From the NCBI GenBank assembly GCA_005191425.1, contig SUPR01000045.1:1-27631 (forward strand): 27,631 bases of DNA. Direction: 5' to 3'. Below, in pieces: positions 11,571-25,053 of the stretch; positions within the stretch are counted from its first letter, which is position 1, and each line of letters opens with the position of its first letter. The notes under the pieces are model-generated. The model did not search any database, was not told where the DNA came from, and saw only the letters and a program-made list of their open reading frames with translations. Position numbers and translations under genes: made by a program. The DNA is from Candidatus Helarchaeota ASGARD archaeon Hel_GB_B (GTDB lineage Archaea > Asgardarchaeota > Lokiarchaeia > Helarchaeales > HEL-GB-B).

Positions 11571-11653
11571 ATTAGAGTCGCTAAGATATTTTTTAATAAT
11601 ACGCCCTTTATCTTCTATAGTATTAATATTTCCTATAATTTAATGTGATTATT

Positions 11654-12454
11654 ATGGTTTTAAAACAAAAAGAATGGCCAAATCCAGGTGAACTAGTAAT
11701 CGGTAAAGTTGTAAGTATTGAAAAACATGGCGCCTACGTGACTCTGGAAGAATATAATAATAAGGAGGGTCTTATCCATATTAGCGAAATTGCGAGCAGT
11801 TGGGTGCGAAATATAAGGAATTTTGTTAAGGAAAAACAAAGAGTCGTTTTAAAAGTAATAAATGTTGACCCTAGAAAAGGTCATATTAATCTCTCTCTTA
11901 GAAGAGTCAATCAAAACCAAAAAAAGGAAAAAAGAAAAGAATGGAAACGAGCTCAAAAAGCAGACGGGCTACTGAATTTAGCTGTAAAAATGGTCAATCA
12001 AGGTAAAACAATCGAGGATGCCTATAAAGAAGTTGGTTGGATACTAGAAGATAAATATGGCGATATTTATACTGGTTTTGAAACAATCAAAAAGAAAAAA
12101 ATGCAAGACCTGACCAAAATTGGTATTCCCAAAATATGGGCTGGTCCAATCTTGGAAATTATTAATCAATATATTGAAATACCTTCTGTTTCTATTTCAG
12201 GCGAATTTATCTTAAGATCGTTTGCTCCAAATGGAATTGAAATAATAAAAAGTGCGTTGGAAAAGGCTGAAAACTTTAATGATGAAAAAAAGATGATTTC
12301 AGTTAAAATTATATCTGTAGGTGCTCCAAAATATAAAATTGACCTTGAAGCTCCTAATTATAAGATAGCAGAAACTATATTAAGCGATATTTCTAAAACT
12401 GTTATTGATGAAATAGTAAATAATAATGGTATTGCCCAATTTTCAAGAGAATAG
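11654..12454 (+). CDS. eif2a: Translation initiation factor aIF2 alpha subunit
   Basis: EWPNPGELVIG, S1 domain GLIHISEIASSWVRNIR, VDPRKGHINLSLRRV, GAPKYKI. ATG at 11654 preferred over the GTG at 11645. Confidence 0.96.
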   Translation: MVLKQKEWPNPGELVIGKVVSIEKHGAYVTLEEYNNKEGLIHISEIASSWVRNIRNFVKEKQRVVLKVINVDPRKGHINLSLRRVNQNQKKEKRKEWKRAQKADGLLNLAVKMVNQGKTIEDAYKEVGWILEDKYGDIYTGFETIKKKKMQDLTKIGIPKIWAGPILEIINQYIEIPSVSISGEFILRSFAPNGIEIIKSALEKAENFNDEKKMISVKIISVGAPKYKIDLEAPNYKIAETILSDISKTVIDEIVNNNGIAQFSRE

Positions 12455-12660
12455 ACATAATTTTAGGATAGACAATAAAAATTTACAATTTTTTGTATAA
12501 TTCATTTGCTAAAATTAATTAGTACCTTCATATATTATTTTTGAATTACTTCCAAAACCTTTATAAAGGAAGTGTGCGTGAAATACTCAAAATTAAAAAA
12601 TTATAATTTATTAAATAACACAATAAAAAATAAATTAAAACATTTAAAATAGTGGTAACC

Positions 12661-13005
12661 TTGGAATTCTGTGATGAATGTGGGTCATTAATGTATCCAT
12701 CTAAAGATAAAAATGGAAAAACAATATTTATATGCAGATCTTGTGGCAAAAAAAAGGAAGTAGATGAAAAAGAAGATAAAAATTCAGAGAGCTATCGAAT
12801 TGGCTCTAAAATAGAGCATAGTGAAACCGATTTTACACCTATAATTGAAGAAGATATAAATGTGCTTGGTGTTATAAATGTTATCTGCGAAAAATGTGGA
12901 AATAACGAGGCTCAATATTGGCACATTCAAACCAGAAGTGGCGATGAAGCAATGACTACTTTTTATAGATGTACTAAATGTAAACATACTTGGCGCGAAT
13001 ATTAA
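12661..13005 (+). CDS. tfs: Transcription factor S (TFS / RpoM-like)
   Basis: Two zinc ribbons (FCDECG..CRSC; CEKC..RCTKC) and acidic hairpin QTRSGDE. TTG at 12661 gives the typical MEFC start; the ORF track gives 12652. Confidence 0.93.
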   Translation: MEFCDECGSLMYPSKDKNGKTIFICRSCGKKKEVDEKEDKNSESYRIGSKIEHSETDFTPIIEEDINVLGVINVICEKCGNNEAQYWHIQTRSGDEAMTTFYRCTKCKHTWREY

Positions 13006-13053
13006 AACATCAATTTAACCAGATATTTCGGACAAATTTTTTTAGTTGTTTTT

Positions 13054-13488
13054 ATGTACAAAGAGAATTTAAAAAAAGTTTTTTCTAAAATAAAAATAAA
13101 TTCTTATAAATCAATCTTTTTAAACAAAAATTTAGCGAAGATGGGCGATAATTTTGTCAATTTTATATATTCAATAGCTAGAGCAATTGCAGTAAAAAAT
13201 ATATCAGGTCAAAAAGTACCCGGAAAAGTATTAATGCAAGCATTTAGATATTCAGAACTAAATGGTTACATGCCAAGCCGGTCCTCCTCCCATGATATTG
13301 CAGATGCAGTTGAATCTATAATTTTTTATGTTTGGTTAACTGAAAAAATGGGTATCAATAAAATTGTCGATATTTTAGTCGAAGAATTAAAAATGGGTGA
13401 TTTCTCTTCAAGAAAAAATGAATTTGATACGGCTGTTTTAGCATTTACAAAAATATTGAATGAAATTGAAAAATTAAAACTATTTTGA
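13054..13488 (+). CDS. Archaeal ribonuclease III-family (mini-III-like) protein
   Basis: LAKMGDNFVNFIYS resembles the RNase III signature and ADAVES carries the second acidic pair. No dsRBD. Converges on rpoL with a 9-nt overlap. Confidence 0.7.
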   Translation: MYKENLKKVFSKIKINSYKSIFLNKNLAKMGDNFVNFIYSIARAIAVKNISGQKVPGKVLMQAFRYSELNGYMPSRSSSHDIADAVESIIFYVWLTEKMGINKIVDILVEELKMGDFSSRKNEFDTAVLAFTKILNEIEKLKLF

Positions 13489-13773
13489 CCCAAATTCTGA
13501 AATCGCTTCATCAAATTTCTCTTTAAATTTATCAGTCCTTTCAATTAAAACTTTACAAGCATCCATTAAAGCTTGTTTCGGCGTTTTTGTGCCATTAGTT
13601 TTAACATAAACTCTTGGTTCTGCCATTAAAGGATGCTTTATCATATATCCAGCAAATACTGTTGATGAATCATCAAATAAAATTTGCTTTAAATTTGTAC
13701 ATAAAGTATGTCCTTCACCCAGAATTTGAATTTCAAGTGAATTTTCATCTTTATTTATTACTTTTATTTCCAT
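13480..13773 (-). CDS. rpoL: RNA polymerase subunit Rpo11 (L)
   Basis: GEGHTLCTNL, AGYMIKHPL; GGAGTGA RBS upstream. Confidence 0.95.
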   Translation of the reverse strand: MEIKVINKDENSLEIQILGEGHTLCTNLKQILFDDSSTVFAGYMIKHPLMAEPRVYVKTNGTKTPKQALMDACKVLIERTDKFKEKFDEAISEFGSK

Positions 13774-13790
13774 TTTTTAATTTCACTCCT

Positions 13791-14360
13791 TCAAGCATTC
13801 ATTTTACCATAATCAATACTATATTTTCTAAATTCTTGATTTCCACATTGTCTACAAACTAGTTTTCCCCCTTTTAATTCCAAAGTATTTCCACAAATTC
13901 TACAAAATGCCAAGATTACACCCATCTTTTTCCCTATTGTTGTTAATTGATAGGGAATTCTGTCAGTCTGTAATACCTTGGCTTTAATTATATCTCCTTC
14001 ATTAAAAGCATCATTCATTATTTCAATATATTTTTTTGATGTTTGAGAAATATGTACCATTCCTTCGAAGGACGACGTATAAAAAATTCCATCCATATTA
14101 GTCATTATAACTATTGCAGAATTTCTCCTTATTTGTTCTACTTTAGCAAACACAACTTGACCTGGAGATGGTATAGGAAAATCTTTTTTCTTTCTTTTTA
14201 CACTTACAATTCTTTTTTTCATATTTATTTCTAAGTGGCCTAATATATTACTATAAATTATCCCATTTTCTTCATATGTTCCATCTCCAGGCATAAACAT
14301 CTCAATAACTCCAATTTTATCACCTGGAAGTACTAACGAACCTGTTTTAGGAATTGCCAT
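13791..14360 (-). CDS. csl4: Exosome cap subunit Csl4
   Basis: VLPGDKIGVIE..PGDGTYE, S1 domain, C-terminal zinc ribbon CRICG...CRQCG..EFRK; canonical neighbour of rpoL. Confidence 0.93.
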   Translation of the reverse strand: MAIPKTGSLVLPGDKIGVIEMFMPGDGTYEENGIIYSNILGHLEINMKKRIVSVKRKKKDFPIPSPGQVVFAKVEQIRRNSAIVIMTNMDGIFYTSSFEGMVHISQTSKKYIEIMNDAFNEGDIIKAKVLQTDRIPYQLTTIGKKMGVILAFCRICGNTLELKGGKLVCRQCGNQEFRKYSIDYGKMNA

Positions 14361-15200: not shown

Positions 15201-16499
15201 TTATTTAAAATTCTTTCCACTATATATTGAATTTTGAATCTTTTCTTCAATTCTTAATATTCTATTATATTTGGCAGTCCTTTCACTCCTTGCGGGTGCA
15301 CCTGCTTTTATCAACCCTCTATTAAATGACAAACCTACTGCCAAGTCTGAAATAAATGTATTTTCAGTTTCACCCGATCGATGACTGACTATTACATTAA
15401 AATTGTTCTTTTGACACAATTTTGCAGAATTTAATGCTTCGGTTAAAGTACCTACTTGATTTACTTTTAATAATAATGCATTCGCACTTTTTTCTTCTAT
15501 TCCTCGCTTAATTCTATCGACTTGAGTGACAAAAAGGTCGTCCCCTACTATTTGAATGTTTATTTTACTCATTAATTTAGAATGAGCTTGAAAGTCATTC
15601 TCATCAAAAGGGTCTTCAATCGAAATAATTGGATATGTTTTTACCAAATCAATATAATAATCAATTAGTTCCTCAATACTTAGTCTTTTTTCATCAATGA
15701 GATATTTAGACCCATTATAAAATTCACTTGCAGCTGCATCAATCGCAATTGAGATTTCTTTTCCCTTATTATAACCTGATTCTTCTATTGCATCTATTAA
15801 TAAATTAAGAGCATCTTTTGTAAAACTTAAATTTGGTGCAAAACCTCCTTCATCCCCTAAATTAATTGCACTTTTTCCAAATTTTTCTTTAATTCTATTT
15901 CTTAAGTAATGATAAACTTCGCTAATCATAATAATAGCTTCTTTAAATGAAGATGCACCAAATGGGACTATCATAAACTCTTGGACTGATAAATTGTTTC
16001 CAGCATGCTTTCCGCCGTTTAATACATTTGACATTGGAACAGGTAATACATATTTAATAGATGGAACATCATTTTCTCTATAAATTTTATATAAATATTC
16101 AAATAACTCAATATTTAATTCTTTAGCTGCCGCATCGGCCACCGCTAAGGAAACTGAAAGTATGGCGTTTCCTCCCAAATTAGATTTATTTTTAGTCCCA
16201 TCTAACTCTATCATAGATTGGTCTAATGAACTCTGGTCTAAGACATTCTGATTTAATAATAATTTAGCAATTTTCAAATTTACATTTTCTATCGCTTTAT
16301 TTACACCCCGTCCCATAAATCTATTATTTCTATCCCTTAATTCTAATACTTCATGTTCCCCGGTCGAAGCTCCAGATGGAACAGCTGCACGTCCAACAAC
16401 ACCATCTTCAGTAATTACATCTGTTTCTATCGTTGGAAATCCCCTTGAATCAAGAATCCAACGTGCTCTTATTTTTTTAATTAAATATCTATCTGTCAT
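15201..16499 (-). CDS. eno: Enolase (phosphopyruvate hydratase)
   Basis: DSRGFPT, VPSGASTG, GDEGG, LLKVNQVG, SHRSGETE; GGTGA RBS upstream. Confidence 0.97.
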   Translation of the reverse strand: MTDRYLIKKIRARWILDSRGFPTIETDVITEDGVVGRAAVPSGASTGEHEVLELRDRNNRFMGRGVNKAIENVNLKIAKLLLNQNVLDQSSLDQSMIELDGTKNKSNLGGNAILSVSLAVADAAAKELNIELFEYLYKIYRENDVPSIKYVLPVPMSNVLNGGKHAGNNLSVQEFMIVPFGASSFKEAIIMISEVYHYLRNRIKEKFGKSAINLGDEGGFAPNLSFTKDALNLLIDAIEESGYNKGKEISIAIDAAASEFYNGSKYLIDEKRLSIEELIDYYIDLVKTYPIISIEDPFDENDFQAHSKLMSKINIQIVGDDLFVTQVDRIKRGIEEKSANALLLKVNQVGTLTEALNSAKLCQKNNFNVIVSHRSGETENTFISDLAVGLSFNRGLIKAGAPARSERTAKYNRILRIEEKIQNSIYSGKNFK

Positions 16500-16698
16500 A
16501 TTATAATCACCAATATTTCTATTTTTCCAAAATTTTGTGGATAGTTTTTTAACATTATCACAAATATATTTGCTTAATTTAATTTTAAATTAAAACTAAT
16601 GACAAATTTTTAACAAAATTCATATTCCAATTTTTAATAAATATAATTATCTCAAAAAATTTTAATATTTAATGTTTATTTATTTTAAAGTGATTATA

Positions 16699-17772
16699 AT
16701 GAAAAATAAAAGCAATATAGCTACGATAAAGAGCACTGAAACTAAAATGGAATTGGTTGAACTTAAACCAATAGTAATATCTCCTTCTAATTCTTATAAA
16801 TGGCGTGCTGGAAAAGGTTATAGCTATAAAGAAATTAGAGCTGCGGATATTCCAATTGACGATTTAAAAAAAGTCGGTGTCCCTATTGATAAAAGACGGA
16901 AATCATTACACCAAAAAAATGTGGACGAATTAGCAACATTTTATCGCCAATTAGTTGCAAATAAAACATTAACAACATATGAAAAAGAAACTGAAACAAT
17001 TAAAAGAGAACAGACTATTAAACACCTTACAAAATTACCTGAAATCAGTAAAAAAGATGCCGAAATATTAATTGAAGGTGGAATATTAACTATTTCTCAC
17101 TTAGCAGAAGAAGACCCTGAACTATTAGCTAATGATCTTGATATCGACTTGAATATTGTTAAAAAGTGGGTTGAGTCTGCTAAATCAATCAAGTTGATCA
17201 TTGACGCCAAATCTGCTTATAAAAAGTTCTCGAAAATTAACGGGATCAAAAAGAAATATATTAAAAGTCTTTTAGAACTGGGCATCGCAGATATTGACAA
17301 TTTATTAGATGCAAATCCAGAAAAGATCGCAGAAAAACTCGACCTAAATATTGATGAAGTACTCTTCTGGATTGATCAGGCTAAAAATATCAAGAATAAA
17401 GGGGATGTAGGAACAGAAAAAATAGAATCTGAGCAGAAAAAGATTATACCTAAAAAGAAAAAAGGTGATATTGAAATAAGTGAAACAGTGGAATCAGAAT
17501 TGGCTGTAGATAAACTTGTAGAATTGGAAACGGGACCTTCCGAAATTGAAACCGAAATACAGATCCCCCAAGAAGAAATTAAATTGAAAGCTGAAGAAGA
17601 ATTACTTAAATGTAAAGGAATTGGTAAAAAAGCGGCTGAAAAATTGATTGAATCTGGTATATTTTCATTAGAAGAATTAGTTAAAGCTGATATCACTGAA
17701 TTAGAAAAATTATCTGGCATCTCTAAATCAAAACTAGAAAAATATCAAAAATCTGCCAAAGAACTGCTTTAA
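16699..17772 (+). CDS. rpl13e: Ribosomal protein L13e (eL13) domain fused to three helix-hairpin-helix modules
   Basis: N-terminal WRAGKGYS..EIRAA..GVPIDKRRKSLH..NV is the archaeal L13e core. Three repeats follow: LPEISKKDAE.L.E.GI, INGIKKKY...L.ELGI, CKGIGKKAAEKL.ESGI. ATG at 16699 preferred; the ORF track gives 16672. Confidence 0.82.
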   Translation: MKNKSNIATIKSTETKMELVELKPIVISPSNSYKWRAGKGYSYKEIRAADIPIDDLKKVGVPIDKRRKSLHQKNVDELATFYRQLVANKTLTTYEKETETIKREQTIKHLTKLPEISKKDAEILIEGGILTISHLAEEDPELLANDLDIDLNIVKKWVESAKSIKLIIDAKSAYKKFSKINGIKKKYIKSLLELGIADIDNLLDANPEKIAEKLDLNIDEVLFWIDQAKNIKNKGDVGTEKIESEQKKIIPKKKKGDIEISETVESELAVDKLVELETGPSEIETEIQIPQEEIKLKAEEELLKCKGIGKKAAEKLIESGIFSLEELVKADITELEKLSGISKSKLEKYQKSAKELL

Positions 17773-17963
17773 TTTTTGATAAAAAATTTATATTTAACCA
17801 ACTTTTTGTTGGGTTCCATCCATAAATTTTTATTTAATAACTCATAACATAAGATATTTATGGATACATAATTTTATAGAAATCTTGAATAGAATTTTAT
17901 ATGAAGAGTAATTAAGTATTATTTGATACGTAGTGTTTTTTACCTCAGAATGTCGGTGGTATA

Positions 17964-19475
17964 ATGATATTCAATGATGATAATAAAAGAATTATTGAAT
18001 TAGCTAAAGTCATGTCTCTTAAATTAGCTGAATCTTGTTCTCCTCGTTTTATAAAAACTAATTTTAAAAAAATTATTAGTGACCAAACGACCTATGTTTA
18101 TGAAATTGAAGAATTAAAAAATAAACTCTGGGATTATGAAAAACAAATCCAGTTCATCCCAGAAATTGAAGAACTAAAATCCAAAGTTCAAGACCAAGCA
18201 AATAAAATAAAAAATCTTGAAAATTTAATTAGTTCTTTAAACGAAGGCAAAATTACGGCAGATTTACAGAATTTATTGATAGAAAATGAAGAATTAAAAT
18301 CACAATTTAATGAAATTCAAAATGAAAATAAGACTTTAATGGATAAAATTAAAAATTTAGAACAATCTAATTATAATTATAGAAACTTAATAGATTCCCT
18401 TGAAACTAGAATCTCTGAAATTAATAACAAAATGTATGAAGAGATGATCGAAAATCAGAAATTGCGAAAATTACTATATAATGAGAGAAATAAAGTTAAG
18501 CAACTTGAAGAAGAAAAGAAGGAATTGATATCTGTTAAACGAAGGCTTGAAAATAGACTATTAATGGGTGGAAATTTATTTGGGCTCTCAATAACTACCC
18601 AACCTTTATCTGAAATATCTAAGGAAGAAAATTCAATTCAATTCCAAGCAGAAATTAAAAGAATTAATCTTGAGCTAAATAAGAAGGTTGAACGAATAAA
18701 AACTCTCGAATTTGAAATTAACGAACTTAAAGAAAAAATTGCTCACTCTAACACCGCCGATCTCACTTATGAAAATGAAAAACTTAAAGAAGAAATTGAA
18801 AAGAAAAACGCTATCATTCTTGATTTCAATACCTTTCGAAAAAAATTAGCAGTCCAAACAAAAAATCTCCAAAACAGGATCACTGACTTACAAAACCAAT
18901 TAAGAATAAAAACTACTGAATTAGAAGAAAATAAAAAGATAATTAATGAACTTGAAACTGCAGTAAAAACTGGTATTAAAGACTCTACTGCACGAGAACT
19001 CATTGCAAAATTACAAAATGAAAACCATAACTTGCGTTCTGAAATTAAATCAATGGACTCTGCTATTCGTGCTCAAGATAAATCCAGTATGGGACTCCGA
19101 AATCAAGTAAGGTCTTTAAAAATACAATTAAATAAATTGTATAACCAAAGCAAATGGCAATTAAGTCAATTATACCGCTTGAATGACATTCTTGAACGAG
19201 CTGGTATTGACCCCTCTCAGTACGGTATTGACCCCACAAAGTTTACGGCAGATTTTAAAAAAGTTGTTCAGTCCGATGATGAAACTATAAGTGATTTCTC
19301 AGAAAAAGAGAAAAAGATACGTCAACTTGAGAAATATGTTTCTGAATTGGAAAATGAAATTAATGAAATAAATTTTAGAATTATGAGTCGTGATGTAAAA
19401 ATTAACGAATTAGAAGGTATAATTAACGATATTAAAAAACAAGTTGCCAGTAAAGGTATAAAAATTAAGAGTTAG
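17964..19475 (+). CDS. Long coiled-coil protein of unknown function
   Basis: 503 aa rich in E/K/L/N/Q heptads over almost the whole length; no ATPase motifs seen; GGTGG upstream. Confidence 0.8.
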   Translation: MIFNDDNKRIIELAKVMSLKLAESCSPRFIKTNFKKIISDQTTYVYEIEELKNKLWDYEKQIQFIPEIEELKSKVQDQANKIKNLENLISSLNEGKITADLQNLLIENEELKSQFNEIQNENKTLMDKIKNLEQSNYNYRNLIDSLETRISEINNKMYEEMIENQKLRKLLYNERNKVKQLEEEKKELISVKRRLENRLLMGGNLFGLSITTQPLSEISKEENSIQFQAEIKRINLELNKKVERIKTLEFEINELKEKIAHSNTADLTYENEKLKEEIEKKNAIILDFNTFRKKLAVQTKNLQNRITDLQNQLRIKTTELEENKKIINELETAVKTGIKDSTARELIAKLQNENHNLRSEIKSMDSAIRAQDKSSMGLRNQVRSLKIQLNKLYNQSKWQLSQLYRLNDILERAGIDPSQYGIDPTKFTADFKKVVQSDDETISDFSEKEKKIRQLEKYVSELENEINEINFRIMSRDVKINELEGIINDIKKQVASKGIKIKS

Positions 19476-19485
19476 AGGACTTTTT

Positions 19486-22400
19486 ATGCATCCAAAAAAA
19501 AATACTCAAACCCATTATTTAATATTCATAATTCTCTTTTTGTTAATGATAAGCTTTTTAATACCTTTCCTATTTTCTAAAAAAAATATTTCTATTTCAA
19601 ATTCTTCCTATAATCCAGATATTTCTCCAACTGAAACAGTCTATCCTTCAGGAACTGGACCTAAGTTACAAGTTATTGAACATGCAAAAGGTATTAGAAA
19701 TGATCATAATATACAGAATGACACATCAATTTATTGGACAATTCCTTCTAAATGGACTGGAGAAAATGCTACTCTGACGGTATCTAATTTAACAGCAAAA
19801 AATAATAAAGACTTGAAAAGTGTGGCTGATGGTGGCCATTTATCAGATAATTGGTGTAATTCTAGTGGAAATTATTTAGATACCCGCGAGCTCGATGGGA
19901 CTTCATGGGACTTACGATGGGGCCAATTTAATCTATTAGATGCGGATTTATATTTTAATACATCTGCCTACCAAGATAGCATTACCAATTTGCATGTTCA
20001 TTTAGAAGTTTCTACCTCTAATCTTGGAGGGAGTGATTATCTGGATATACAGCTTCAAAAAGAAAGTTCTGGTTATGATTTAATTCAAAAAATCACAAGT
20101 AATGGTAATTTTATAATTGATAAGGACTTTTCTTCTAATCCTGCTGATTATGTTAATCCCGATGGGCGTATGTGTATTAACTTTTATGCACCGTCCGGAT
20201 CTTCTCTTTTAGCAAAACACGTTTCAATCGATTATGTTTATATAAATGTTACTGCAGGTCGAAAAATGGTCAGTCCCTTTCAAGTCAACCTAAATGTTAA
20301 TGGTACTTCTTTTATAGGCACATGGAATGATTCTTTTGCAATTCTTCATGGGCCCTGGAATTCTGGTCAAATTTCATTTTTCTTTGATTGTAATAATTTA
20401 TATTCTGTTTCATTTAATGTTCGGACTAATCTATGGATTAATAAAACAAATTATGCCAATTCTACTTATATCAGAGGGTCTGGTGATGTCCCCATAGACC
20501 ATTATTGGAGAATTAATTTTAATGCAATAGGTGCGTCAGTTTCTTTCCAATATCAAAATTTTATGGTTTTACATCCTAAAATTTGGACATATATAAATGC
20601 AACATCCCCTTCGGGCCCCGCATCTCCGATTTCTGGGTCGTATCTGGAAAATTCTACGATATATGTCTATTTTTCAATTTATGAAAGTGGAGCATGGGAA
20701 TTCTATTGTAATTCTCCTAATATAATTTCTGCAATTCATGTTATAAATAATTCACAAGAGGTATATACTGCAAATATTTCTGAAACATTGAATATAAGTT
20801 GTGACCTGATACAATCTGGAATTTCTGGAAATTTCAATTTAACAATTTATAACGGGACTACTATTGTCCACCAAGAATTTGTCTCTTCATCAGGGACTTC
20901 TGTAATCTTCACACCATGGACTATATATAATGACTCGCTTAATAATGGGATATATAAAATAATCATAAGTTGGAAAAATTCTACTGCTATTGGATATGCA
21001 AAAAGATCTATCACTGTTATTTATCCCACTGAATTAATCAATTATACAATTTCAAATTCTTATTTTATAGGTAAAGAGTTAAACATAATCGTATTTTATA
21101 ATAATACTTTTCATCTTAATGGCTTTTTAGAAAATGGTATTATCGGAGCTAATTTAAATTATGTTATTAAAAATTCTACTGTTCCAAACCTTGATAGTGG
21201 TGCTTTAACCGATCTAAATAACGGAAATTACTCTAAAACAATTACACTTGATTATTCAATAGGAAATTATACTTTAATAATCAATGCCTCTAAAAAATGG
21301 TATCAAAATATTTCAAGGCATTTTCATTTTGAAATTTTTGCATATAATACATCAGCAAATATTTCGCTCCCTACAATTAACGGGATTGGGAAAGTTTATT
21401 GTAATTATACAGAAACTGTAACTTTTCGATTGAGTTATTATAATACATCAAGAGGAAATTACTCTTTTATTTCAGGAGCAAATATTTCCATATACAAAAA
21501 TTCTAACCTTGTAAATCATATTTATTGGCGTGAATCAATAACAAATAAGACTTACTATATATTTTTAAATAGTACTAGCACTGATTTCGTTTCAAGCTGG
21601 GATGATATTAATAGCAATATTACAATCTCTATCCATATTTCTAAATATTCATTTATTTCCAGAACAATTACTATTAATTGGGATGTTAGAAATACTACTG
21701 CGTTATTAATTGGAAATCTTACTGAAAATAGAATGAGTGGAGAATTCGGTATTAAATTAAATTACACAAATACTCTTTTAAAAAGTCCAATTTCTGATTA
21801 TTATTCGCCAATATTTCATTTTATTTATAATGGCTCCATTTATTCGACTCTTAAGATACAATATTTAACGTCTGGACTATGGAACTTAAGTTGCATTTTT
21901 AATGAAACTTTAAATGTTTCTTATAATGTAAACGTTAAGGTCTCAAGTATTGGTTTTGTCGATACTTACTGGAATTTCAAATTGAAAATATTCGTTGTAA
22001 AAACGGTCAATTATACATTCAATATTACTGAAAACATTTATTATTATCAAAACTTAAATTTCTCAATAATTTATAATAGAACTCATCCAATTTTAGAGGG
22101 TTTAGATTCAGCAGAGATATCCTCTTCACAATTTGGGCTATCTGTTAATAATCTTGGTTCTGGTATTTATCAAGTAGAAGTATTTACCGCCCACTTGCTG
22201 AATGTATCTCATTATAAATTATATTTTCTAATTAAACAAATCAACTATCAACAAATCAATTTTTCTATTCAATTCAACGTTATAAATGTAACAACCAACT
22301 CTCATATCATAAATTCAACTGATCCTCTTTTTGATGGAATTCATTCTCAAGTCTTCGTAAACCAATCTATAATATTTTGTCTAACATATAATGATACATT

Positions 22401-25053
22401 TAGAGACGAATTTGTAGCAAATTCAAAAATTTCTGCACAAATTGTAAATTTGCAAGGGCATTTAATCAGTTCTCAATTTGATTTATCTTCATTTTCAAAT
22501 TATTATTTAATAAAAATAGATACTTTAAGAGTCCACGCTAGTAATTATTTATTGAAAATTATATCTAAAAAACAAAATTATCAAGAATCTATCATAATCT
22601 TAAATTTTACGATTAAGCCATACAATTCTTCATTAATAATATTTAGAGACCATCCACAACAAGGAATTGTGCAGTTATCTTCTTATGTAGAATGGGATCA
22701 TTTTCAAATTCTATTTATGACCAATTTTACTGGAACTTTTTATTATAAATTCATTAATTACACAGACAGAATTAATTGGGGTATTGCTCGATATGTAATT
22801 TGTAAAAAAGGAGAAGATCTACAAAATCGTTCAAATTGGCTTAGAAATGGTACTTTTTATTATGATGCTGGTAAAAAAATGTTCTATACTAACGCTATTT
22901 TATTAAAATATAATAATGAATCATATCTCCCTATAGGAAATTATACTGTATATGTTTCAAATTTCGCGAGGGATTGTATTAATCAAACTGTTAATTTTTC
23001 ACTTGAAATCATTCCGCGCTTAAGCGGTAGAATTGAATTGTATCCTATAATTTCAATTACGGCGGGTCAACCATTTTTGGTTAAGGCAAAATTATATGTT
23101 GATGATTCACCATATTCTGGGATTTTAAAACTATATGTTACTTACAAGGATAAAGATGGAAACGTGATTGATAATGAAACAATAATTTTAATTACCGACT
23201 CAAATGGGATCAGTAGAAAATATGTTTACGTTAAAGATTCATGTAGTAAAATTATAATTAACATTAAATTTGATGGAACTTTTCAATATTATCCGAAAAT
23301 ATCTATTGAACCGTTTAGCCTTGACCACCCAATCATATTAACAGTTGAAAAACCAATAAATATATTTCCACTAATTATTGTAATTATAATCGCTAGTATT
23401 GGCAGTTTAAGTGCCGTAATTTTTGTAAAAACTAAATTAATAGACCCTAAAAAAGCTAAAAAATATGAATTATCTATTGAGAAATTTAATCATTTCAAGG
23501 ATCTAGCAAGTATTATCTGTATTATCCTGATAAATAAGCTGAAGAATCAAATTGAATATAGAAAAATTCTAATAGATAAAGGATTTGACGAAAAATATTG
23601 GAATGCTATTGATAAAAAATTAACAGAATTTTCAGGTGTTGGTAAAAAAAATAATGCTGCCCTTGACATTATTCATTATGATTCAATAAAAATTTTAGTA
23701 GATGACGGGGAATATATTAGACTTGCATTGCTGTTAGAAGAGTATCCATCTGAAATTATTCTACGGTCTGCTGTTGGATTTATACAATATTTCGAGCTAA
23801 CTCATTATAATTTATTAAAAAAATCTGAGTATAATAAAATAACTGATTTAGAGAATTTTCTTGAAAAAAAGTTTGGGTTATCTTATATTGTCCCTTATAC
23901 AATCTCTATTCCAAAATTAAAAAGCGTAAAAATTTCCGTATTTCAAGATACATTAATAAATATGGCGCGAGAAATTTCAGAAGAGGGGTATTTCTATATT
24001 TCTGATTTGTACAAAAAGGTTATTGATGAATCGCTTATTGAAGGAATGATCATTTTCCAGACGATTCAAGAGTTAATAACTAAAAGTGTATTTGTTCCTT
24101 ATGAAGTGTCATTAAAAAGCCATAAAAAATTAGTCAAAAGTCCGGAAAAATATACCACTTCTAAAAGTGAAATTGATAGTTATCGATTAAAAATTGTAAG
24201 TTATACAAATAAGGCATTAAATGCTATCAGAAAAAACGACTTAAATCTAGCTCTAGAATCTTATGAAAAAGCTGCTGCTCTCGCAAAACAATTTAATTTT
24301 AGGGAAGAATGGAAACATTTTCTAGTTAAAATTGAAGATATTAAAGCTAAAATAGAGCGATCTCCATCTATTTCTCCACCTATCTCCACGCCAAAACCTG
24401 AAATTAAATCAAAATATTCTGTAAAGATTCAATCCATTTCGACTGTAAAATATAGAAAAGAAAAAAATAAAGAAGAAGTTGAAAAAAGCGAAACAAAGGA
24501 AGAATTAATTCAACAAAAACAAACAAAACCGCCAATATCGCCAAAACCATCTGATATCGAAGAAATTAAAACAATTTTAACTCCAAAACCTGCTCCAAAA
24601 CAGGAAAAATACCCAAAAATCAAAATAGATGTCACAACAATTGATGATGAAATTCAGAACATAGAACAGGAAATTCAATCAATAGATAGGAAAATCTCTA
24701 AAATGAAAACTGAAAGGGAAGAAGACACCCTAACTCCACTTGAAAAAGCTTTAAAATTTGGAATTGATGTTAAAGATGAAGACATTTTCGAAATTTCAAA
24801 AGAAGATGAAAAAGAACAAGATACTGATACACCTCAAATAAAAATAATAAATAAAAAAATTATTAAAATCGCTCAAGAACCTGAAACTCTGCCTAGTGAA
24901 CGACCATTAACACTTGAAGATTTAAATTCTCTATGTCCAAAATGTGGTGCAAAAATTTCTGAAAAATATCTAAAACTCATAATTAAAGGTTATGAACCAG
25001 AATGTGAACGATGTGGTTTTGTTTTGAAATTAGATAACCTAAAAAAATATTGA
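19486..25053 (+). CDS. Large membrane-anchored surface protein with N-terminal signal/TM, beta-rich N-glycosylation-rich ectodomain, a TM near aa 1293-1314 and a ~540-aa cytoplasmic tail
   Basis: Hydrophobic N-terminus HYLIFIILFLLMISFLIPFLF, very frequent NxS/T sequons, TM IFPLIIVIIIASIGSLSAVIFV followed by KTK, C-terminal CPKC-x19-CERC. Confidence 0.85.
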   Translation: MHPKKNTQTHYLIFIILFLLMISFLIPFLFSKKNISISNSSYNPDISPTETVYPSGTGPKLQVIEHAKGIRNDHNIQNDTSIYWTIPSKWTGENATLTVSNLTAKNNKDLKSVADGGHLSDNWCNSSGNYLDTRELDGTSWDLRWGQFNLLDADLYFNTSAYQDSITNLHVHLEVSTSNLGGSDYLDIQLQKESSGYDLIQKITSNGNFIIDKDFSSNPADYVNPDGRMCINFYAPSGSSLLAKHVSIDYVYINVTAGRKMVSPFQVNLNVNGTSFIGTWNDSFAILHGPWNSGQISFFFDCNNLYSVSFNVRTNLWINKTNYANSTYIRGSGDVPIDHYWRINFNAIGASVSFQYQNFMVLHPKIWTYINATSPSGPASPISGSYLENSTIYVYFSIYESGAWEFYCNSPNIISAIHVINNSQEVYTANISETLNISCDLIQSGISGNFNLTIYNGTTIVHQEFVSSSGTSVIFTPWTIYNDSLNNGIYKIIISWKNSTAIGYAKRSITVIYPTELINYTISNSYFIGKELNIIVFYNNTFHLNGFLENGIIGANLNYVIKNSTVPNLDSGALTDLNNGNYSKTITLDYSIGNYTLIINASKKWYQNISRHFHFEIFAYNTSANISLPTINGIGKVYCNYTETVTFRLSYYNTSRGNYSFISGANISIYKNSNLVNHIYWRESITNKTYYIFLNSTSTDFVSSWDDINSNITISIHISKYSFISRTITINWDVRNTTALLIGNLTENRMSGEFGIKLNYTNTLLKSPISDYYSPIFHFIYNGSIYSTLKIQYLTSGLWNLSCIFNETLNVSYNVNVKVSSIGFVDTYWNFKLKIFVVKTVNYTFNITENIYYYQNLNFSIIYNRTHPILEGLDSAEISSSQFGLSVNNLGSGIYQVEVFTAHLLNVSHYKLYFLIKQINYQQINFSIQFNVINVTTNSHIINSTDPLFDGIHSQVFVNQSIIFCLTYNDTFRDEFVANSKISAQIVNLQGHLISSQFDLSSFSNYYLIKIDTLRVHASNYLLKIISKKQNYQESIIILNFTIKPYNSSLIIFRDHPQQGIVQLSSYVEWDHFQILFMTNFTGTFYYKFINYTDRINWGIARYVICKKGEDLQNRSNWLRNGTFYYDAGKKMFYTNAILLKYNNESYLPIGNYTVYVSNFARDCINQTVNFSLEIIPRLSGRIELYPIISITAGQPFLVKAKLYVDDSPYSGILKLYVTYKDKDGNVIDNETIILITDSNGISRKYVYVKDSCSKIIINIKFDGTFQYYPKISIEPFSLDHPIILTVEKPINIFPLIIVIIIASIGSLSAVIFVKTKLIDPKKAKKYELSIEKFNHFKDLASIICIILINKLKNQIEYRKILIDKGFDEKYWNAIDKKLTEFSGVGKKNNAALDIIHYDSIKILVDDGEYIRLALLLEEYPSEIILRSAVGFIQYFELTHYNLLKKSEYNKITDLENFLEKKFGLSYIVPYTISIPKLKSVKISVFQDTLINMAREISEEGYFYISDLYKKVIDESLIEGMIIFQTIQELITKSVFVPYEVSLKSHKKLVKSPEKYTTSKSEIDSYRLKIVSYTNKALNAIRKNDLNLALESYEKAAALAKQFNFREEWKHFLVKIEDIKAKIERSPSISPPISTPKPEIKSKYSVKIQSISTVKYRKEKNKEEVEKSETKEELIQQKQTKPPISPKPSDIEEIKTILTPKPAPKQEKYPKIKIDVTTIDDEIQNIEQEIQSIDRKISKMKTEREEDTLTPLEKALKFGIDVKDEDIFEISKEDEKEQDTDTPQIKIINKKIIKIAQEPETLPSERPLTLEDLNSLCPKCGAKISEKYLKLIIKGYEPECERCGFVLKLDNLKKY

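Follow-up and report, generated by a model that had tools for sequence, protein, structure and literature searches.

Among the known relatives of the system treated here are the eL13 proteins of eukaryotic ribosomes. After its conserved core, human eL13 has a middle region that touches the ribosomal RNA (rRNA) expansion segment ES7L weakly and a C-terminal helix that binds ES9L (PMC10665555). The yeast protein is part of a belt that runs round the solvent-side equator of the subunit (PMC5961077). On the archaeal side, the Lokiarchaeota carry a supersized ES9 of 29-103 nt (PMC7594248). We analyzed a stretch of 27,631 nt, hereafter the window, which corresponds to positions 1 to 27,631 of contig SUPR01000045.1 in the metagenome-assembled genome of Candidatus Helarchaeota archaeon Hel_GB_B (GCA_005191425.1). 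It encodes an eL13 of 357 amino acids (aa) whose core is followed by an arm of three helix-hairpin-helix (HhH) modules, as a model reading only the letters and open reading frames of this DNA had proposed (the original prediction). Our analyses leave almost no doubt about the identity and architecture of this protein. They also revealed that arm-bearing eL13 proteins are common among Asgard archaea, and they suggest several ligands for the arm with graded likelihood.

The open frame lies on the plus strand, closes with a stop codon at 17770-17772 and may begin at 16672 or 16699. A start at the ATG of 16672 would give the 366 aa of database entry P0002, and Met17 is another candidate start. The start at 16699 (MKNKS...) appears more likely, because P0003, an orthologue of 58% identity from another assembly, has MKNKS at the matching place. 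The expected L13e core is indeed found at the N-terminus: Pfam Ribosomal_L13e (PF01294) matches it at 42.9 bits against a cut-off of 24.9, and the same gene scores 45.5 bits in a six-frame search of the genome. A profile made from the core only matches Pyrobaculum calidifontis eL13 (9E6Q chain AH) with an E-value of 3e-17, as well as about 60 eukaryotic eL13 sequences at their residues ~54-129. In the AlphaFold2 (AF2) model, which was computed from a 42-row alignment and has a mean predicted local distance difference test score (pLDDT) of 83.8, the core reaches a pLDDT of at least 90 and consists of two short strands followed by helices 43-48, 53-59, 72-87 and 90-110. Foldseek retrieved dozens of eukaryotic eL13 chains with this model (probability 1.00, E-values of 4e-3 to 2e-2, target-normalized template-modelling score up to 0.61), and the E-values are modest because the core is a small part of the 357-aa query. 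Moreover, G40, E45, D64, R67 and N74 are invariant in an alignment of 42 Asgard eL13 proteins.

The arm is equally well defined. Pfam HHH_5 (PF14520) matches it in three separate stretches with 82.7 bits against a cut-off of 27, the best stretch being residues 300-348, and modules 1 and 3 each exceed the cut-off individually in a genome-wide HHH_5 search. All three modules are found by a hidden Markov model (HMM) that we built on the modules themselves and from which the boundaries in Table 1 are taken. Overlapping Pfam matches on the arm include Cdd1, DUF4332, HHH and the DNA polymerase lambda fingers. Alignments of module against module, compared with shuffled sequences, gave z = 14.4 for modules 1 and 2, and 8.7 and 5.6 for the other pairs. 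In the AF2 model, each of the three modules adopts a five-helix fold with two hairpins (by DSSP, helices 90-110, 118-126, 132-137, 140-147 and 151-177 in module 1, and equivalent sets in modules 2 and 3). The pLDDT exceeds 90 in the modules (93-98 in module 2) and falls below 50 for residues 237-287. The canonical hairpin glycines are present in module 3 (KGIG, SGIS) and lacking in module 1 (PEIS, DLDID) and module 2 (NGIK, LDLN). The net charges are -4, +2 and 0 for modules 1, 2 and 3, respectively.

The linker between modules 2 and 3 carries the acidic low-complexity string quoted in the original prediction and has a net charge of -7. We considered the linker as a decayed fourth module, and this candidate was rejected: aligned to each of the modules, residues 235-297 showed no resemblance (z about -1.5 to 1). 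The affinities named for the arm, namely RadA N-terminal, NusA AR and DUF4332-like, agree well with the nearest sequence and fold matches, to which Cdd1 must be added. The best NCBIfam match of module 3 is NF003301, the RadA N-terminus (residues 299-356 to profile positions 4-61, E 3e-13). As had been stated for haloarchaeal L32e, the model NF009401 of that protein contains an HhH part, and it matches module 3 at profile positions 8-53. NusA AR2 gives weak sequence matches (E 0.002-0.003, with 0.002 for module 3), and the top Foldseek match of the whole model is a NusA chain (8y5l chain NA, 144 aligned columns). The proposed architecture therefore stands, and only its lengths need correction: the core, put at ~90 aa, ends nearer residue 105, and the repeats, put at ~55 aa, are of ~60 aa.

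In principle, the fusion could be an assembly or gene-calling artefact joining a short L13e to a separate HhH gene, given that the window is part of a metagenome-assembled genome in 182 contigs. However, no stop codon interrupts the junction between core and arm, and the same DNA occurs in several vent and sediment metagenome runs of different studies, none of those listed being an RNA run. Three of these other runs, X3, X4 and X2, have contigs (16494-17311, 16885-17072 and 16932-18100, respectively) that span the junction and show 0-3 differences; the fusion is therefore not an assembly artefact. Orthologues of 351-368 aa with the same layout are present in other assemblies, and the same fused frame recurs in at least six other genomes of the order and in dozens across the phylum. 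The open frame, the bridging contigs and the fused orthologues thus rule out the artefact, whose probability we regard as negligible. The window's own genome (3.54 Mb, 93.7% complete) contains exactly one PF01294 match in a six-frame search of the whole assembly, and this match is the present gene. It appears to be the organism's sole detected eL13, as the original prediction had asked to be checked, with a small doubt arising from the completeness of the genome.

Table 1. Features of the eL13 gene and of the two genes downstream, in window coordinates
Feature	Position	Strand	Remarks
eL13-(HhH)2x3 gene	16699..17772	+	357 aa plus stop; from the open reading frame list and its translation
eL13 core, residues 20-109	16756..17025	+	Pfam PF01294, profile and fold matches
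HhH module 1, residues 106-166	17014..17196	+	internal; hairpins LPEIS, DLDID; own HMM, HHH_5, Cdd1, DUF4332
HhH module 2, residues 173-234	17215..17400	+	internal; hairpins NGIK, KLDLN; own HMM
Flexible linker, residues 235-297	17401..17589	+	KKKK patch, then Glu-rich tract; pLDDT
HhH module 3, residues 298-357	17590..17769	+	terminal; hairpins KGIGKK, SGIS; own HMM, HHH_5, RadA N-terminus
Coiled-coil protein, 503 aa	17964..19475	+	downstream neighbour of eL13, conserved in four other genomes of the order
Membrane protein, 1855 aa, with cytoplasmic tail and C-terminal zinc ribbon	19486..25053	+	begins 10 nt after the coiled-coil gene

We searched for PF01294 first in 41 relatives and afterwards in 301 genomes of the phylum. 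The frames surrounding the matches were mostly 145-260 aa long, and rarely the 70-90 aa expected for archaeal L13e. When 42 eL13 proteins were extracted across the phylum, all 42 matched L13e and 37 of them also matched HHH_5. HhH-bearing eL13 is therefore the normal Asgard state, and the fusion is not the oddity of this one protein that it had been taken for; the feature specific to it is the number of modules. By our HMM, three of the 42 proteins have no module, most have one, and family f15 and a few others have two. Three modules are found in the window's genus (G000, the window's genome, and G001), and four in other families of the same order (G002, G004 and G006, also G003 and G005), in proteins of 392-489 aa. 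The longest eL13 arms are thus held by the window's order. A profile search of 1.84 billion representatives returned 2022 eL13-like proteins, and among the matches listed, 114 had no module, 30 had one, three had two, five had three and two had four. The module-less proteins among these were mostly of 60-141 aa, as expected if archaeal L13e is normally short, and a few long repeat proteins were false positives. The named members with a clear module all carry Asgard labels: Lokiarchaeota, Odinarchaeia, Jord-/Freyarchaeia, 'Asgardarchaeia' and Promethearchaeia.

The arm-bearing form is the sole form in most of the Asgard classes sampled, and must therefore be the ribosomal protein wherever eL13 is used. 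A second PF01294 match exists in four genomes (G022, G092, G147 and G222), and almost every other genome with a match has one; the second match of G022, the one inspected, is broken by stop codons. In the literature searched, Asgard ribosome cryo-electron microscopy included, we found no description of an eL13-HhH fusion, and the wider literature may differ. The combination of domains is visible in automatic annotation, as in the JGI name 'ribosomal protein L13E/predicted flap endonuclease-1-like 5' DNA nuclease', and Asgard eL13 proteins with one or two modules also bear the plain label 'ribosomal protein L13e'. What is new here is the series of zero to four modules peaking in this order, the positional orthology of the modules, the difference in glycines between terminal and internal modules, the lack of a significant correlation with ES9 and the conserved downstream synteny, the last four of which are described below.

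Several eL13 proteins encountered in these searches depart from the common layout. In family f4 of the sister order, the protein (~200 aa; L007-L012, L064-L071) has a Lys-rich segment (KKKKPYVFKEKKRTPFKP...) between the core and the HhH module. With it, Pfam L13e matches as far as model positions ~166-171 of 180, so that the segment resembles the middle region of eukaryotic eL13; it is lacking in the window's eL13. In G219, a 4.4-Mb single-contig genome of the sister family f5, eL13 (L089:1453-2181:+) has a shortened core, a basic linker of ~110 residues rich in Lys, Pro and Thr, and a C-terminal helical domain of ~60 aa that matches neither our HMM nor Pfam HHH_5. Apparently, this terminal domain is either a replacement or a module that has diverged too far to be recognized. 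PF01294 was found in 1 of 28, 0 of 11 and 0 of 21 genomes of families f8, f17 and f25, respectively. Such scarcity agrees with the published lack of eL13 in Heimdall-type lineages (PMC9932298), even though the protein is present in eukaryotes, and divergence instead of loss could account for it. Finally, P0164/P0147 are L13e proteins of 130-133 aa, with one member labelled Candidatus Bathyarchaeota, that match our HMM and, below threshold, IMS_HHH; judging from these matches, the fusion may reach beyond the Asgard archaea, although the HhH signal of the Bathyarchaeota-labelled protein, of 130 aa, stays below threshold.

The history of the modules was examined in a tree of 54 modules. Module 1 of the window clusters with module 1 of the four-module proteins (support 83/96), and module 3 of the window clusters with their terminal module 4 (support 96/91). 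Each set of second modules forms its own well-supported clade, that of this genus with support 100/100. The disordered linker of the window sits at the place of the third of the four modules in the sister families. The modules therefore group by position and not by protein, which argues that they are old and conserved by position instead of being the product of a recent tandem expansion. The hairpin glycines follow the same division: a glycine is present at HMM column 12 in 54% of the terminal and 11% of the internal modules, and at column 43 in 85% and 21%, respectively. These data strongly support that the terminal module is ancestral and phylum-wide, and that the internal modules were added in this order, with the hairpin glycines largely lost.

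The placement of the protein follows from homology. The core would be embedded in the large subunit at its solvent-side equator, as it is in Pyrobaculum and in eukaryotes, and the arm would leave it at the point where human eL13 begins its stretch to ES7L and ES9L, so that it would project from the solvent face near those sites. Modules 1 and 2, which directly follow the last core helix, would act as a spacer or a secondary docking surface. The terminal module, tethered by a disordered acidic leash of ~60 residues, would capture a ligand through backbone contacts. That the arm is solvent-exposed and tethered is very probable, and we give about even chances to the explanation as a whole, a ribosomal eL13 with a ligand-capturing HhH arm. 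Among the possible ligands, a nucleic acid is slightly favoured. The organism's own rRNA expansion segment, such as ES9, may serve at somewhat below even likelihood, and DNA or mRNA would be an unlikely choice. A protein partner is a tentative candidate, and a ligand of any other kind is rather improbable. We also propose, tentatively, that the arm is a lineage-tunable tether of zero to four modules, which would grip the supersized ES9 or a neighbouring expansion segment, or else would anchor ribosomes to a DNA, membrane or cytoskeletal partner. The syntenic coiled-coil and giant membrane proteins described below are candidate partners within this same tentative reading. An arm gripping ES9 would take, by means of HhH modules, the role that the C-terminal helix has toward ES9L in eukaryotic eL13.

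Both large-subunit rRNAs recovered from the order, those of G003 and G005 with four-module eL13, have an insertion of ~85 nt at the tip of a hairpin at ~nt 720-750, which we take as the ES9 site from its position and its agreement with published ES9 sizes, not from a structure map. Across 11 Asgard large-subunit rRNAs, the hairpin at this site measures 117-119 nt in these two genomes, 154 nt in the two-module G077 and 89 nt in the one-module G032. It is of 28-38 nt in the others, namely G075 and G038 (two modules), G046 and G149 (one), and G041, G051 and G219 (none). All four genomes with an expanded hairpin thus have at least one module. The rRNA of G003 (L058) has further insertions of 251 nt and 96 nt toward the 3' end, which are possible introns or expansions, and the rRNA match of G077 (L092) spans 4804 nt.

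Several observations weigh against the favoured explanation. The large-subunit rRNA is not assembled in the window's own genome, so that no ES9 can be read from it, and the same holds for G001, G002 and G004. Module number and hairpin length are not significantly correlated (Spearman rho 0.42, p 0.20, n = 11 genomes that are not phylogenetically independent), and a rule by which more modules accompany a longer ES9 is not supported by this comparison. A two-module eL13 coexists with a minimal hairpin in G075 and G038, and a one-module genome (G032) has the 89-nt hairpin. Since modules occur without expansion of the hairpin, no simple coupling between modules and ES9 is shown. The near-neutral modules and the acidic linker are unlike typical basic rRNA-binding extensions, and are nearer to protein-binding HhH domains such as those of NusA AR. 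Lastly, NF008914 (PRK12277), the NCBIfam equivalog for archaeal L13e, has a cut-off of 96 bits and scores only 50.1 on residues 28-88. By the NCBI threshold, the protein is a homologue and not an equivalog.

The equivalog score would also fit an extraribosomal protein reusing an L13e-like fold, with the real eL13 encoded elsewhere or absent. A short eL13 gene could be missing from a genome that is 93.7% complete, and eL13 is dispensable in several archaeal lineages (PMC9932298). However, almost every genome of the phylum that has a PF01294 match has a single one, and the rRNA-binding residues of the core are invariant. We consider an extraribosomal protein highly improbable.

A ribosomal eL13 whose arm serves as a protein-recruitment platform, docking a factor on the solvent face of the large subunit, is a tentative alternative. 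The factor might, with the same reserve, be a chaperone, a targeting or hibernation factor, RNA polymerase, or a membrane or cytoskeletal tether. The AR1-AR2 repeats of NusA dock the alpha-CTD of RNA polymerase, and both the top structural match of the whole model and the weak sequence matches of the arm fall on NusA. The neutral to acidic modules, the acidic linker, and the internal modules without the hairpin glycines used for backbone contacts are all consistent with a platform. In addition, the modules are conserved across the order position by position, a pattern suggestive of partners specific to each position. On the other hand, the terminal, phylum-wide module has canonical hairpins of the nucleic-acid type, with the RadA N-terminal domain as its closest match.

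The gene neighbourhood also bears on such a platform. In four of the five other readable neighbourhoods of the order, those of G002, G004, G005 and G006, the genes for the coiled-coil protein and the giant membrane protein follow eL13 as they do in the window, with gene order and orientation kept, and G003 lacks this arrangement. The coiled-coil orthologues directly downstream of eL13 in these four genomes match with E-values of 1e-37 to 1e-70. Neither protein of the window matches a significant Pfam family. The 1855-aa protein has an N-terminal signal or transmembrane segment, a large Asn-rich outer part, a transmembrane segment near residue 1300 and a cytoplasmic tail of ~540 aa, and its zinc ribbon is a terminal CxxC...CxxC. 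The giant protein has a weaker homologue in the sister order, located 3-4 kb from eL13 and convergent with it. Synteny by itself is weak evidence, however, and the gap between eL13 and the coiled-coil gene is ~190-250 nt. Prediction of a complex between the coiled-coil protein and the HhH arm scored 0.00; it gave no answer and counts neither way. Upstream of eL13, the opposite strand encodes enolase, a methyltransferase and the exosome subunit Csl4 with an added zinc ribbon, and further upstream the plus strand encodes eIF2-alpha, a TFS/RpoM-type zinc-ribbon protein and an RNase III-like protein (PF11469). An information-processing cluster (eIF2-alpha, TFS/RpoM, RNase III-like and Csl4) thus occupies 11645-14360 of the window.

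The genome contains 13 HHH_5 matches. Besides the present gene, these are three RadA/Rad51 proteins, Hef, Hel308, a membrane HhH protein, a DUF7121-HhH protein and unknowns; no other HhH-bearing ribosomal protein is among the 13. P0159 (L050:712-1677:-, contig C21 of the window's genome) is a protein of 322 aa with two N-terminal HhH modules, 30-37% identical to modules 1-2 of the eL13 arm, followed by a multi-pass membrane region, a layout that recalls ComEA.

The (HhH)2 domains of the HHH_5 type are classic binders of double-stranded DNA without sequence specificity, as in RadA-N, RuvA, Hef and Hel308. The arm could accordingly bind double-stranded DNA and hold ribosomes at the nucleoid, with a putative aid to the coupling of transcription and translation. 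The presence of HHH_5 in this genome's RadA/Rad51, Hef and Hel308, the match of the terminal module to the RadA N-terminus, and the paralogous tandem pair fused to a membrane domain in P0159 speak for this reading. However, the modules carry little net positive charge, the arm lies by homology on the solvent side of the large subunit, a long way from the path of the mRNA, and tethering every ribosome to DNA seems costly. Binding to DNA at the nucleoid strikes us as quite improbable, and we retain the ribosomal eL13 with a ligand-capturing arm as the favoured explanation.

Among known prokaryotes, the Asgard archaea are the nearest relatives of eukaryotes, and their ribosomes are notable for supersized rRNA expansion segments. 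A conserved arm of variable length, on a protein whose eukaryotic C-terminus binds ES9L, is a concrete feature to look for in maps of Asgard ribosomes. Binding of the arm to an expansion segment would mean that protein and rRNA expansions were co-evolving before the rise of eukaryotes, and binding to DNA or a partner would indicate a spatial organization of translation in Asgard cells. Either a grip on ES9 or an anchor would be an undescribed prokaryotic way of organizing expanded ribosomes or of localizing translation. Should the arm prove a passive decoration, the present findings would still be useful for annotation, because such genes at times bear a wrong name, 'flap endonuclease-like nuclease' or 'hypothetical'.

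To conclude, the protein can be set against the known systems that it resembles. It shares with the eL13 family the core motif G-x-G-F/Y-S ... D-x-R-R ... N, the predicted fold and the single-copy gene. Its core aligns with residues ~4-76 of P. calidifontis eL13 (9E6Q chain AH, 157 aa), and with the same residues, ~54-129, of yeast and human eL13 (about 200-211 aa). Armless archaeal eL13 proteins are mostly of 60-140 aa, compared with 357 aa here. The eukaryotic extension is a disordered loop with a basic ES9L-binding helix (PMC10665555), whereas the window's protein has three (HhH)2 modules and an acidic linker. The one- and two-module eL13 proteins of other Asgard archaea (Lokiarchaeia, Thor-, Odin- and Jord-/Freya-type; 135-300 aa) have the same core, the same terminal module and the same order of core, linker and HhH, although their linker is basic and Lys-rich and that of the window's genus, with its three modules, is acidic.

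Outside the eL13 family, the haloarchaeal L32e (NF009401, PRK12766) is likewise a large-subunit ribosomal protein of archaeal/eukaryotic type fused to HhH, but it is another ribosomal protein, with a single HhH at its N-terminus; to our knowledge, no function has been established for that HhH. The NusA AR1-AR2 repeats are also tandem five-helix HhH modules on a flexible tail. The similarity is at the level of the fold only: eL13 lacks the NusA core, its modules are not markedly acidic, and we do not claim membership in the NusA family. The (HhH)2 domain at the N-terminus of RadA/Rad51 is the best NCBIfam match of module 3 and shares its canonical G-I-G hairpin, yet eL13 is devoid of the ATPase core, and the genome has three separate RadA/Rad51 genes with HhH domains of their own.

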